From: a virus
Lineage: Duplodnaviria > Heunggongvirae > Uroviricota > Caudoviricetes
DNA: 31,263 nucleotides
IMG/VR virus record: IMGVR_UViG_2654587588_000015
Location: 1 to 31,263 of that record
Reading direction: 5' to 3' (one strand)
Shown here piece by piece: positions 2,627-6,091 of the stretch (the first letter of the stretch is position 1; each line of letters begins with the position of its first letter). Under the pieces are notes generated by a model. The model had not been told where the DNA came from. It made no database searches and worked only from the letters and a program-made list of their open reading frames with translations. The translations under genes were made by a program, and so were the position numbers.

Positions 2627-3226
2627 ATGGCGCATATACAACTGGTCAAACAAACCTCTTCCGGATTACTTCTCCCGGCGACGCCGGAGAGTTGCGATTT
2701 TTTGCATCAAATAAAAATAGGCGAGTGGATACACGCAGACTTTAAGCGTGTGCGTAACTACGCATTCCACAAGCGTTTTTTCAAACTCCTGCAATTGGGA
2801 TTCGATTACTGGACTCCGGTCGGTGGGGCGATCACGCCTCGCGAACGAGAACTGCTGTCTGGTTTCGTTGATTACCTGTGTGAATCAGTAGGTCGGGAAC
2901 ACACACCAGCCCTGAGTGATGCCGCAGAGCAATATCTAAATACAGTTGCGACACGCAGAACCCGGGATACGGCATTGCTAAAGTCGTTTGAGGCTTTCCG
3001 CGAGTGGGTAACCATTCAGGCCGGATTTTACACCGAGCATCTTTATCCTGATGGTAGTCGTGGGCGTCGGGCAAAATCTATCGCATTTGCGAACATGGAC
3101 GAAACCGTGTTTCAGCAGGTTTATAAATCTGTACTGAATGTGCTGTGGAACTGGATCCTGTTCCGTAAATTTTCCTCTCCGGAGGAAGTCGAAAATGTGG
3201 CCGTGCAGCTGCTGGAGTTTGCGTAA
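2627..3226 (+). CDS. Lambdoid nin-region protein, DUF1367-like (199 aa)
   Basis: ORF with GGAGA RBS; family assignment from memory of lambdoid DUF1367/YbcN-like proteins, not verified. Confidence 0.6.
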   Translation: MAHIQLVKQTSSGLLLPATPESCDFLHQIKIGEWIHADFKRVRNYAFHKRFFKLLQLGFDYWTPVGGAITPRERELLSGFVDYLCESVGREHTPALSDAAEQYLNTVATRRTRDTALLKSFEAFREWVTIQAGFYTEHLYPDGSRGRRAKSIAFANMDETVFQQVYKSVLNVLWNWILFRKFSSPEEVENVAVQLLEFA

Positions 3227-3516
3227 TGGTGGATTTACGTAAAGCGGCGCGGGGCCAGATGTGCCAGGTCAGAATCCCTGGCTACTGCAATCACAATCCC
3301 GAAACGTCTGTGCTGGCGCATTACCGACTGGCGGGAACGTGCGGAACGGCGATAAAGCCACACGATATGCAGGCAGCGATTGCCTGTAGCTCGTGCCACG
3401 ATTTAATCGACGGGCGGGTAAAAACCAGCGATTACACCAAAGAAGAATTACGCCTGATGCACGCAGAAGGTGTTTTTCGCACACAAGAAATCTGGAGAAA
3501 GGAAGGTTATTTATGA
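3226..3516 (+). CDS. YbcO-like (DUF1364) Cys-rich putative nuclease (96 aa)
   Basis: Start overlaps the upstream stop; multiple Cys/His; sits in the nin region before Q. Confidence 0.6.
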   Translation: MVDLRKAARGQMCQVRIPGYCNHNPETSVLAHYRLAGTCGTAIKPHDMQAAIACSSCHDLIDGRVKTSDYTKEELRLMHAEGVFRTQEIWRKEGYL

Positions 3517-4067
3517 TTTACCCAACGAATACAGGAAAAAGCGGAGAACACCTTCGTCTCACCACGCTGGAAAGTGTCTGGATTCAGGGAAAACTGCGTA
3601 TGTGGGGGCGCTGGTCGTATATTGGTGGCGGTAAGACGGGGAATATGTTCAACCAGTTGTTGACCTCTAAAAAGCTGACAAAAACGGAAATTAACGAGGC
3701 GCTCCGCAGGATGAAAAAAGCAGGTCTGGACAAACCTGAACTTGAGGCTTTTTTGCGGGGTATGATTAACGGCAAGCAAAAGAGCTGGCTGGCACATTGT
3801 ACCGATTCAGAGGCATTAATAATCGACAGGGTTATTGGCGAAGTACTGGCAGAACACCCAGGATTGATTTGTATCCTCCAGCAACGATATGAAGGGAGTG
3901 GGATGACTAAGCGAAAAATGGCTGAATTGCTGAATGATTCACACCCTGAGTGGTGTTACGCCACGTGCCGTAATCGCATAGATGCGTGGTTGAAAATGGC
4001 AGAGTTTATGCTCTATCTGCCGATGCGTGATGCATTCTCTTCCGGGGATTTAAAAACTGTCTGTTGA
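3513..4067 (+). CDS. Late-gene antitermination protein Q-like
   Basis: ATG 3513 overlaps upstream stop (ATGA); gene is immediately followed by a promoter-like element and terminator, upstream of the lysis genes. Confidence 0.6.
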   Translation: MIYPTNTGKSGEHLRLTTLESVWIQGKLRMWGRWSYIGGGKTGNMFNQLLTSKKLTKTEINEALRRMKKAGLDKPELEAFLRGMINGKQKSWLAHCTDSEALIIDRVIGEVLAEHPGLICILQQRYEGSGMTKRKMAELLNDSHPEWCYATCRNRIDAWLKMAEFMLYLPMRDAFSSGDLKTVC

Positions 4068-4093
4068 CTCAATCTGTTATCCGGGGCTATATT
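4064..4093 (+). promoter_or_regulatory. pR'-like late promoter candidate (TTGACT, 18-bp spacer, TATATT)
   Basis: TTGACT at 4064-4069 overlapping the Q stop; TATATT at 4088-4093. Confidence 0.4.
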
Positions 4094-4153
4094 TCCGAAG
4101 CGCCAGCAAAATCTGGCGTCGGGATTGGAACCCCGGATATCGAAACGGTGCAT

Positions 4154-4173
4154 ACCGCGCTGGCGGTTTTTTT
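4154..4173 (+). terminator. tR'-like rho-independent terminator
   Basis: CCGC-GCTG-GCGG hairpin followed by T7. Confidence 0.55.
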
Positions 4174-4336
4174 ATGCGCTAAGCACAGTCACATTCGCGA
4201 TTTATGGCGGGCTGTGTGGGGGCACCGAAAGGTGCACCGGATGTTTCGACCGGTAGTTCCAACCCTGCACAGTTCGCCACCCGATGATTGGAACCTGAAG
4301 GTGGTGAGGTAAAAATTATCGAAACGCGAGGTCGTT

Positions 4337-4900
4337 ATGACTGTTCAAGTTGCTGTCAAAAACCTTTCCCCTGTCACTTATAACCAGATTCCTGTAATCA
4401 CAACTGAGTTACTCGCCCGCCTTTACGGAACAGAAGCAATCCGTATACAGCAGAATCACCATAAAAATAAATCTCGATTTATTGAGGGAAAACACTTCTT
4501 TAAAGCTGTTGGTGATGAGCTCAAAAATTTGCGACTAGTTTTAAACGAGTCGCAAAATGAGGTGAAAATTTCTCCAAAAACCCGCTCCCTCATCCTCTGG
4601 ACAGAACGCGGCGCAGCCCGTCATGCCAAAATGCTCGAAACCGATCAGGCGTGGGATGTGTTCGAAAGACTGGAAGACTGCTATTTCAGACAAAAGGATC
4701 CGTCAGCGCCAGTTTCATGCCAGAAAAGTTACGACACGCGAGTTCTCTGTTATCAGCAAGGCGGTGTCACTGTTTCCACAATTCAGTTGCGGGATGATGA
4801 TATTGTTATTTCCCTTGAGTCATGGCTGGAACTGGCGAGAGCCAATGGTTGGTTTGTTGTTCGCAGAGATAAACTGGTGGAAAGGCTGATGCAGCTTTAA
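4337..4900 (+). CDS. ORF6N/KilA-N-like putative antirepressor or DNA-binding protein (187 aa)
   Basis: N-terminal region resembles recalled ORF6N-type domains; followed by its own terminator. Confidence 0.5.
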   Translation: MTVQVAVKNLSPVTYNQIPVITTELLARLYGTEAIRIQQNHHKNKSRFIEGKHFFKAVGDELKNLRLVLNESQNEVKISPKTRSLILWTERGAARHAKMLETDQAWDVFERLEDCYFRQKDPSAPVSCQKSYDTRVLCYQQGGVTVSTIQLRDDDIVISLESWLELARANGWFVVRRDKLVERLMQL

Positions 4901-4995
4901 AAAAGTTCTTGCAATTTTAGCCATAAACTGCTTCAATTCCAGTACGCTTCGCAAAGCTGTATCGCGAGGCGAATCAAGCGCATGAACTTTACCAG

Positions 4996-5024
4996 AACCC
5001 GCCATTGAGCGGGTTTTGTTGTTT
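4996..5024 (+). terminator. Rho-independent terminator
   Basis: CCCGC-CATTGA-GCGGG hairpin followed by TTTTGTTGTTT. Confidence 0.55.
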
Positions 5025-5037
5025 CTGGAGAACACCC

Positions 5038-5268
5038 ATGAAATTTTATGAATTATCTTCTGATTCCCGATCTCAGGCCAAAATCACACTGGGTCAGTTC
5101 ATTGTGGCTCGGGCTAACCCGGGGGTGGATGATTTTGAAAATTTGGGGCATTGCATCGCTGCCGCGTTTATTGCGATGGAGCGCTATGAAAGCGCCCCTG
5201 AGGTTGGTGAGGGGCGTAGCGGGAACGGAATACCCGTTAATGGCGATCAAAACTCACTTCTTGATTAA
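5038..5268 (+). CDS. Small hypothetical protein (76 aa)
   Basis: ATG 5038 with GGAGA upstream; 3' end overlaps the convergent minus-strand gene. Confidence 0.35.
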   Translation: MKFYELSSDSRSQAKITLGQFIVARANPGVDDFENLGHCIAAAFIAMERYESAPEVGEGRSGNGIPVNGDQNSLLD

Positions 5269-5532
5269 ATGCCATGAGCGATCTGCCGCTTGAGTGACTA
5301 GCACCCGAGGGTTCTTTTTTATTGTCCCAGCGATGGCTACAACTTCTTCTCGGACTGCGCGAGCAGATGCGTTTTTTTCGGCTGTGTACTCAGCGTCTGG
5401 AAGATAAAACCAGTTTCCTGCTCCATCTTGAATTTCGCGAAAGTATCTTCGGGATTCCATCGCCTCATGAAGGCGAGCGTAGTCATCGGATGATGCACCC
5501 ACAAGCTCAACGCGGACAGTAAAACTAGCCAT
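5254..5532 (-). CDS. Hypothetical protein (92 aa), opposite strand to the late operon
   Basis: ATG preceded by AAGGAG at 6-nt spacing on the minus strand; longer track ORF trimmed to this start. Confidence 0.55.
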   Translation of the reverse strand: MASFTVRVELVGASSDDYARLHEAMESRRYFREIQDGAGNWFYLPDAEYTAEKNASARAVREEVVAIAGTIKKNPRVLVTQAADRSWHLIKK

Positions 5533-5749
5533 ATATACTCCTTTAATTGATATGGTTACTTTTGGCGATTTAACGATATCAAACACGAGGATATACCGCC
5601 AGAAGCTTAATCTGGTACTCCATCTGGCCCTGGCATGTCCCGGGGCTTTTTCGTTGTTAGGCTCCGGAAACATCCTCGACTTCTTGTGAGCAAGCCAGAG
5701 AGCCTGAATCTTACATTTAGCACCATCCGAACTTTCGGAGGTGAGGCTT

Positions 5750-6091
5750 ATGAAAATGCACAATGTCCCTCATTCCTGGCCTGACTTACTGGAACTCTTA
5801 CAAAGTTGGTGGCGTGGAGATACGCCGCTGGGTGCAGTGGTTATGTCAATTATTATGGCTGGTTTGCGCATTGCCTATTTTGGCGGTGGCGGCGGCTGGA
5901 AACGAAAAACGCTTGAGATTCTGCTTTGTGGTGCTCTGACGCTGACCTTTGCATCCGCGCTTGAGTATGTCGGATGGCCTAAATCACTTTCTGTTGCCAT
6001 TGGTGGTGGGGTGGGGCTGATTGGTGTTGATGCTATTCGTGGTGCGGCAATGAGGGTCATCGGTAACAAGTTCGGTGCCCATAAGGAGTAA
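5750..6091 (+). CDS. S: Lambda S-like class I holin with M-K-M dual-start motif
   Basis: MKMHNV N-terminus (ATG 5750 and ATG 5756) after GGAGGTGAGG RBS; hydrophobic segments; C-terminal region resembles lambda S. Confidence 0.8.
   Translation: MKMHNVPHSWPDLLELLQSWWRGDTPLGAVVMSIIMAGLRIAYFGGGGGWKRKTLEILLCGALTLTFASALEYVGWPKSLSVAIGGGVGLIGVDAIRGAAMRVIGNKFGAHKE

Follow-up and report, generated by a model that had tools for sequence, protein, structure and literature searches.

RNA-controlled antirepressor genes are described in phage P1 and in the Salmonella prophage Gifsy-1, and both were compared here with an antirepressor locus at positions 4064-5024 of a lambdoid prophage segment (Caudoviricetes; IMG/VR record IMGVR_UViG_2654587588_000015, positions 1 to 31,263), the whole of which, 31,263 nucleotides (nt) long, is referred to as the window. 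In P1 immI, the C4 RNA is excised from the leader, with RNase P making its 5' end (attributed to Hartmann et al., 1995), and represses icd/ant translation. The GenBank record of P1 gives the order P51b promoter, a1, b1, C4, a2 (3 nt past the C4 3' end), b2 (on the icd Shine-Dalgarno sequence), icd, and ant1/ant2, and has Ant1 and Ant2 antagonizing C1 repression via an Ant1/Ant2/C1 complex. The allelic a and b sequences are the specificity determinants of P1/P7 heteroimmunity, a finding credited to Citron and Schuster (1990).

In Gifsy-1 (NC_010392), isrK, c4-a1b1, and C4 are situated between antQ and anrP (STM2616, encoding the AnrP protein of 187 amino acids, aa), the same arrangement as in the window. 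The PisrK promoter drives anrP transcription (280 Miller units versus 3 without it), producing an mRNA that is not translated (Hershko-Shalev et al., 2016; PMC4825925). IsrK supplied in trans raised anrP translation 139-fold, the G28A and G31A mutants (in a1) were inactive, the C159U and C162U substitutions (in a') lifted basal expression about 100- to 200-fold, and a processed RNA of ~80 nt, STnc1160, accumulated (PMC4825925). The known role of AnrP is phage induction, its expression raising antQ-operon mRNA and inducing Gifsy-1 (PMC4825925), and lysogens of Gifsy-1 transcribe IsrK, STnc1160, and IsrJ at high levels (10.1101/787010).

Positions 4064-4900 of the window very probably constitute a mobile, RNA-controlled antirepressor cassette of P1 immI design that is homologous to the isrK-orf45-anrP locus of Gifsy-1. 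This assignment was supported by the RNA families and their folds, by three-way covariation among the pairing sites, by b2 lying at the ribosome-binding site, and by the behavior of the cassette as a module. Rfam matches directly upstream of the gene followed the order isrK, c4-a1b1, C4 (Table 1), and the homologue from Escherichia coli (L002) as well as Gifsy-1 passed both the isrK and the c4-a1b1 models. The minimum free energy fold of the first RNA agreed with the IsrK structure, and that of C4 equaled the Rfam consensus of an outer stem enclosing two hairpins (z=-4.69; 0/200 shuffles as stable). Conservation was assessed in 200 related loci on viral contigs, retrieved by searching with the protein and with the a1 hairpin and reduced to 94 distinct leaders, from which an 80-sequence MAFFT alignment was used for covariation. 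The C4 helices were 99.9-100% paired among these 80 homologues, with 11 pairs changed on both sides. A further candidate, a helix sequestering the Shine-Dalgarno sequence and AUG in the fold of the whole leader (4185-4191/4338-4344 and 4194-4199/4325-4330), was rejected as a conserved element, being only 52-60% paired in the homologues.

The pairing sites of the window were internally consistent, in that a1 was identical to a2, b1 was identical to b2, and b2 was the exact complement of b'. The hairpin presenting a2 (4275-4281/4300-4306, span 4275-4306) was 98.8% paired in the 80 leaders, one of its pairs differing on both sides; bases 4275-4279 belong to both this hairpin and the C4 outer stem, which puts the two in competition. 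The "a" site occurred in nine alleles, and 87/94 leaders carried its exact reverse complement ~130 nt and an exact second copy ~165 nt downstream. In the 80-leader alignment, a1-a' was 100% and a'-a2 99.6% paired, with both partners changed at five of the seven pairs of each duplex in roughly half the leaders, and sliding the partner columns by 1-3 positions dropped the "a" pairing to 25-47%. The column-based count for the "b" site was low (38-40% of cells paired in the MAFFT alignment) because indels shift the b alleles out of register, and register-free duplex energies were hence used. Across 16 loop alleles of "b", the median energy of b'-b2 was -8.4 kcal/mol for cognate versus -4.0 kcal/mol for non-cognate combinations, and that of b'-b1 was -8.7 versus -4.2 kcal/mol; these comparisons are phylogenetically non-independent, such that p-values overstate their significance, yet the effect was large nonetheless. 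In many alleles b2 overlapped the Shine-Dalgarno sequence itself.

By analogy with the characterized homologues, the locus most likely encodes a two-RNA switch that keeps the antirepressor untranslated until induction. A constitutive sigma-70 promoter would start transcription near 4100, and most transcripts would end at the first terminator to yield an IsrK-type small RNA (sRNA) of ~75 nt displaying a1 and b1. Read-through transcripts would contain C4, which on the P1 model would be excised as a stable RNA of ~76 nt with an RNase P-generated 5' end (predicted mature ends 4206 and 4281, from alignment to the annotated ends of P1 C4). The a' and b' sites of C4 would then pair with a2 and b2 on the antirepressor mRNA, and since b2 ends 2 nt before the Shine-Dalgarno sequence, pairing there would block ribosome binding and prevent antirepressor synthesis during lysogeny. 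IsrK in excess of C4 would compete for a' and b' and release translation, and the resulting 187-aa protein would counteract the prophage repressor and promote induction.

The resemblance to P1 extended to the placement of the individual sites. The window has the immI order of promoter, a1b1, c4, a2b2, and controlled gene; the c4-a1b1 and C4 Rfam families occur in both phages, in P1 upstream of icd-ant; the junction segment preceding the outer stem's 3' strand holds a', and the hairpin 2 loop holds b'; and a2 follows the C4 3' end by a few nt with b2 at the Shine-Dalgarno sequence. The differences are that icd is absent from the window, where no open reading frame (ORF) lies between b2 and ATG 4337 and b2 directly adjoins the antirepressor's own ribosome-binding site, that the window antirepressor combines ORF6N with a short C-terminal domain in contrast to the ANT/KilAC-domain Ant1/Ant2 of P1, and that the window cassette sits in a lambdoid prophage and has no C1 operator.

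By homology, the product of ORF 4337-4900 is an ORF6N antirepressor-family protein of a kind common in E. coli prophages. The sequence-only reading had described a 187-aa ORF6N-like gene with an antirepressor-like N-terminus, and this held: Pfam ORF6N matched aa 12-99 (E=2e-20; 73.3 bits, cutoff 27.8), and the PHROG 2379 family "anti-repressor" covered residues 1-187/187 (E=7e-88; E=3e-98 for AnrP). The protein shared 49% identity with Gifsy-1 AnrP across the full 187 aa, and through this similarity to an inducer of Gifsy-1 the earlier suggestion of an effect on induction gained support by analogy. ORF6N was its only Pfam match, compared with ANT for P1 Ant1, and a good Shine-Dalgarno sequence (GAGG, 4328-4331) serves the ORF. 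At E<=1e-5 the antirepressor matched 5151 protein clusters, which among the matches listed were mostly E. coli "ORF6N domain-containing protein"; the closest clusters carried the name "ORF6N domain-containing protein [Escherichia coli]", single clusters occurred on 1000 or more contigs, and the identical 187-aa protein was found on contigs of three NCBI assemblies. A PDB sequence search with the 187-aa protein gave no match at E<=0.01, and NCBIfam contained no family for it.

The ORF6N half of the gene and the RNA leader were common to all contexts, and the similarity to the Stx-phage ant gene ended at window position 4689. The C-terminal domain type followed the backbone, with the window's type located downstream of a DUF1133 Q in 21/23 leaders, a type of ~111 aa accompanying NinE, and other types accompanying Q82-type or antitermQ-type Q. 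This distribution fits a partner-specific module, which the domain may be, with linkage alone an equally possible cause. The switch of the C-terminal ~70-aa domain (window 4690-4900) with context implies that recombination has joined the two parts within the gene, at a point following the LEDCYF motif.

Comparison of the left-hand flanks revealed that the promoter travels with the cassette. The TTGAC motif, the 18-nt spacing with the 3' half of the spacer sequence, and TATATT/TATAGT were kept in 62 distinct upstream contexts, sequences 5' of the -35 hexamer being unrelated between contexts. At least 10 different left-hand contexts were represented, in which the gene ending at or near the -35 hexamer encoded a DUF1133 Q, a Q82-type Q (Phage_antiter_Q), a Phage_antitermQ-type Q, NinE, or an integrase. 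Insertion recurred precisely at Q or NinE stop codons, and the cassette was absent from five phages with the same Q gene; in such cassette-free relatives the promoter at 4064-4093 was entirely missing. In the window the -35 hexamer (4064-4069) overlaps the Q stop codon TGA (4065-4067). The stop of the upstream gene fell inside or just before the -35 hexamer throughout the 62 contexts, and in a cassette-free relative the Q stop likewise overlapped a TTGATT; this overlap suggests recombination at a shared AAAAAC..TTGA junction.

The sequence-only reading had interpreted 4064-4173 as a pR'/tR'-like module and had placed the gene in the late-operon leader. On that explanation the promoter would be the Q-dependent pR' and the IsrK terminator tR', so that the antirepressor would be expressed on Q antitermination, and the layout does recall lambda pR'/tR' in that the promoter begins at the stop codon of a Q-type gene with a terminator ~75 nt later. 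The same promoter and initial transcribed sequence, however, follow DUF1133, Phage_antiter_Q, and Phage_antitermQ genes, integrases, and NinE, the NinE case being that of Stx phages, with the site in the nin region ahead of Q. The promoter is also missing from relatives that have this Q gene but no cassette, and a different promoter-terminator pair, at 4909-5024, is linked to Q. A Q-dependent pR' at this position is therefore very unlikely: judged by its distribution after three unrelated Q families, NinE, and integrases, the promoter belongs to the cassette and is not a Q-specific late promoter, the supposed module consists of the cassette promoter and the terminator of the IsrK/c4-a1b1 sRNA, and the gene probably lies outside the late-operon leader. 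An independent promoter within 4174-4336, driving the gene as a classic moron, is scarcely credible, since the promoter scan found no promoter-like site there and the stretch is occupied by the C4 antisense RNA (4200-4284) and its target sites under RNA-structure constraint. The proposed self-contained, moron-like unit accordingly stood in part, in that the gene has its own promoter (4064-4093) in an insertable unit that is absent from close relatives, but the unit does not start at 4174 and the terminator is not its own. With cassettes located at Q stop codons, the promoter on which Q truly acts in these prophages may be farther downstream than is commonly supposed.

Several points weigh against the proposed switch. 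The published Gifsy-1 model differs, as IsrK opens the orf45 ribosome-binding site and anrP is translated by coupling; mutation of a1 in cis raised and did not lower basal expression, which a pure decoy model does not predict; and constitutive STnc1160 failed to relieve IsrK toxicity (PMC4825925). In the window the c4-a1b1 match fell just under its gathering score (44.9 versus 46.7 bits), and the AlphaFold2 model of the protein, built from a shallow 19-sequence alignment, was unusable (mean predicted local distance difference test, pLDDT, of 42; predicted template modeling score, pTM, of 0.37). For the window element, the processing of C4, its repressive pairing at a2/b2, and its titration by IsrK are inferred, and direct repressor binding is a presumption for AnrP-family proteins in general; the immunity region lies outside the window. 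If the Gifsy-1 mechanism applied unchanged, the transcript would be locked, IsrK in trans would open the ribosome-binding site of the upstream ORF (uORF), coupling would switch on the antirepressor, and C4 would be no repressor. Such coupling is suggested by Gifsy-1 orf45 start-codon mutations or an early stop, which reduced IsrK activation from 114-fold to 8- to 39-fold, by the aid IsrK gives to 30S binding at orf45 (PMC4825925), and by the retention of the AUG at 4204 in >90% of the 80 leaders. Against it, the 27-codon uORF of the window stops at 4287, 49 nt short of ATG 4337, no Shine-Dalgarno sequence precedes 4204 in the window, and among the 94 leaders examined the uORF varied from 8 to 76 codons where its stop precedes the antirepressor gene, and the only type to overlap the downstream start codon was that of Gifsy-1, with 45 codons. 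The AUG is also part of the conserved C4 5' end and outer stem, the mature 5' end of P1 C4 falling within the equivalent AUG, and coupling leaves unexplained the covariation of a2/b2 with a'/b' at the antirepressor's own ribosome-binding site. An unchanged Gifsy-1 mechanism is thus quite unlikely for this locus; on the leader comparison, uORF coupling is not a conserved feature of the AnrP-type family, and a2/b2 at the antirepressor's own ribosome-binding site is.

The function assigned to the protein has its own competitor. DNA binding is the predicted activity of ORF6N and KilA-N-like domains, and the product could be a DNA-binding factor of this type that directly activates early phage promoters, or could have another accessory or moron role for the host. 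The Gifsy-1 paper likewise gives a rise in antQ-operon mRNA and induction and not repressor binding (PMC4825925), and PADLOC returned weak PDC-S05 matches via the ORF6N domain (E about 1e-6), which were not counted as evidence of defense. Conversely, PHROGs annotate the family as antirepressor, the N-terminal half partly matched PHROG 63, the best family of P1 Ant1 (E=4e-11), the P1 record has Ant1/Ant2 complexing C1 to antagonize repression, the C4 RNA system gating P1 ant would gate this gene as well, and the C-terminal domain type tracks the backbone as expected of a partner-specific module. A DNA-binding or accessory role is consequently regarded as unlikely next to that of an antirepressor.

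The antirepressor switch may be extended to Gifsy-1 itself, in a proposal given about an even chance of being right. IsrK, described in print as an unusual sRNA activating its own mRNA, would be the a1b1 target mimic of a P1-type C4 repressor represented in Salmonella by STnc1160, C4 acting at a2/b2 on the antirepressor's ribosome-binding site would be the conserved control point throughout the AnrP-family genes with uORF coupling as a lineage-specific addition, and the a and b alleles would form a combinatorial immunity code. The window and Gifsy-1 share the promoter, the IsrK hairpins, and C4 as conserved parts of the aligned intergenic regions, the start of the cassette at the stop codon of the Q gene, and a separate short promoter-plus-terminator unit that follows. 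They differ in the upstream Q gene (DUF1133 in the window versus the unrelated Q82-type AntQ in Gifsy-1), in the alleles (a UUGGAAC and b UCGAAAC versus a UUGGCGU and b UCACCG), in the uORF (27 codons and short of the antirepressor start versus 45 codons and overlapping), in the C-terminal domain, which diverges from that of AnrP, and in the downstream short unit, which is IsrJ in Gifsy-1 and by Rfam not IsrJ in the window. The literature has kept the two systems apart: Hershko-Shalev et al. (2016; PMC4825925) liken the IsrK system to P4 CI/seqA and not to P1 c4, a 2025 review still presents them as distinct, and a paper on APSE phages reports that the c4 and isrK families co-occur beside a BRO-N gene; apart from this co-occurrence, no paper equating IsrK/STnc1160 with C4 was found in the literature searched. 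If the Gifsy-1 IsrK system and the P1 c4 system were the same machine, two separate literatures would be joined.

The nine "a" and at least 16 "b" alleles assorted semi-independently. Under the proposed code, they would decide which co-resident prophages cross-repress or cross-induce, and their interchangeable pairing sites make cross-talk between co-resident Stx and other lambdoid prophages directly testable. In terms of annotation, what had been called a leader, from Q to the ORF6N gene, contains two curated regulatory RNAs; the antirepressor itself is of an already common kind in E. coli prophages. Two C4-antirepressor cassettes ~3.2 kb apart (at 3963 and 7225) were observed on one phage contig (L092, IMGVR_UViG_2872180393_000005; also L004), with the same "a" allele UUGGCGU and the different "b" alleles UACGGA and UCGAAAC. 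In a few alleles the uORF reads in frame into the antirepressor gene (P0017 and P0079; leaders L013/L014), and gene callers report proteins of 229-237 aa whose N-terminus is translated C4 RNA, likely an annotation artifact.

The terminator downstream of the gene was analyzed in the same manner. A terminator scan of the window gave six terminator-like sites against 3.1+/-2.0 expected in shuffles, which by itself is weak evidence, but the hairpin at 4993-5018 was kept in 28/32 distinct sequences retrieved with the terminator-core pattern, and those 28 carried the block at 4909-5024 (block C). In phage vB_EcoS-683R6, which has a related Q and no cassette, the Q stop codon is directly followed by a homologue of window 4922-5027 with the terminator included, and four further phage records gave the same two-piece match. 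Block C was present in 76/80 of the cassette loci matching the 3' end of the window DUF1133 Q and in 6/122 of the non-matching loci. Because the block travels with the DUF1133 Q and abuts Q where the cassette is missing, the clean terminator that the sequence-only reading had given to the gene (4996-5024) is real at 4993-5024 but, judged from this linkage, belongs to the Q-linked block and not to the antirepressor gene. It probably also ends the read-through antirepressor mRNA, with a predicted transcript of ~925 nt in the window versus ~910 nt in Gifsy-1. The positional counterpart in Gifsy-1 is the IsrJ block (L001 33381-33512; TTGCAA/17/TATATT, isrJ 100 bits), linked to a Q82-type Q. Block C and the IsrJ unit may be the true Q-dependent pR'-tR' units, IsrJ then being a 6S-like late-leader RNA. 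An IsrJ homologue 3' of the window gene was sought and rejected, Rfam at E<=1 giving no isrJ match and only a chance-level STnc370 on the minus strand (E=0.86).

Other phage systems showed partial similarity. The ant/antA loci of Stx phages (such as Stx2 phage 1717, VT2-Sakai, and 933W) share the promoter, IsrK, C4, and the ORF6N half with the window (76% DNA identity over window 4077-4689), and their proteins are 61-70% identical to the window protein over aa 1-122. The Stx-phage cassette differs in being located in the early nin region, between ninE and roi and upstream of Q as in Stx2 phage 1717, and in its ~111-aa C-terminal type. P22 sar/ant and P4 CI/seqA-seqC resemble the proposed system in that a small phage RNA gates antirepressor or lytic functions, and P4 CI RNA, a processed leader product, base-pairs with targets on either side of its own sequence. 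Unlike the window, sar is a true cis-antisense transcript, and P4 CI causes transcription termination and gates replication genes; neither P22 sar nor P4 CI RNA had a sequence or Rfam match in the window.

Table 1. Features of the antirepressor cassette and its surroundings in the window.
Feature	Position	Strand	Details
DUF1367 gene	2627-3226	+	upstream of the flagged region (4174-5024)
YbcO gene	3226-3516	+	
Q-type antiterminator gene	3513-4067	+	Pfam DUF1133 E=6e-105; Phage_antitermQ E=4e-7
Cassette promoter	4064-4093	+	-35 TTGACT 4064-4069, 18-nt spacer, -10 TATATT 4088-4093; 10/12 matches in scan
c4-a1b1	4087-4139	+	Rfam RF03163, 44.9 bits (gathering score 46.7); overlaps isrK
IsrK-type sRNA (= P1 a1b1 leader)	4100-4173	+	Rfam isrK RF01394, 72.1 bits (gathering score 50)
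IsrK hairpin 1	4100-4119	+	
IsrK hairpin 2	4120-4135	+	
IsrK terminator hairpin	4154-4167	+	U run to 4173
a1	4125-4131	+	UUGGAAC; loop of IsrK hairpin 2
b1	4140-4146	+	UCGAAAC; in IsrK
C4 antisense RNA	4200-4284	+	Rfam RF01695, 72.8 bits (gathering score 45); model 1-87 fully covered
C4 outer stem	4205-4221/4263-4279	+	
C4 hairpin 1	4222-4235	+	
C4 hairpin 2	4236-4254	+	
uORF, 27 codons	4204-4287	+	inside C4; counterpart of Gifsy-1 orf45; stops 49 nt before antirepressor ATG 4337
b'	4243-4249	+	GUUUCGA; loop of C4 hairpin 2
a'	4256-4262	+	GUUCCAA; single-stranded junction of C4
a2	4288-4294	+	UUGGAAC; loop of hairpin CGCCACC/GGUGGUG
b2	4319-4325	+	UCGAAAC; ends 2 nt before Shine-Dalgarno GAGG 4328-4331
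Antirepressor gene, AnrP family, 187 aa	4337-4900	+	N-terminal ORF6N domain and ~70-aa C-terminal domain
Q-linked block C, outside cassette	4909-5024	+	promoter-like TTGCAA 4909-4914 / 17 nt / TTCAAT 4932-4937, 8-bp hairpin, terminator
Intrinsic terminator	4993-5024	+	stem 4993-5018, 10 pairs, 6 GC, loop 6; T-rich tail to 5024
Two small ORFs			3' of the flagged region, ahead of the holin gene
Holin gene	5741-6091	+	followed by lysozyme gene, Rz-type spanin gene, terminase genes

The cassette lies between Q and the lysis genes, and 93 complete E. coli genomes contained all of window 3500-5300, the best at ~90% identity, with up to 7 matches to this region per genome. No tRNA, such as occurs downstream of Q in Stx phages, was detected by ARAGORN in the leader at 4174-4336 or elsewhere in the window. 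Further upstream, a hok/sok type I toxin-antitoxin module was identified at 1744-2068, its E. coli homologue being annotated hokD; the Rfam sok match (106.7 bits) spans 1744-1915 and runs into the beginning of a Hok-like ORF of 51 aa (1913-2068). Between the terminator and the holin gene are two small convergent ORFs, 5038-5268 (+) and 5254-5532 (-), the reverse one resembling the YmfI phage protein family (NCBIfam 59 bits, below the cutoff of 140), and the block holding them (5038-5532) was present in only 9 related loci. A terminator-like hairpin at 5626-5647 with a T run is located ~90 nt upstream of the holin gene, preceded by TTGATA and a TAACGAT motif, and the corresponding block at 5547-5655 was found in 21/203 loci without linkage to Q type.

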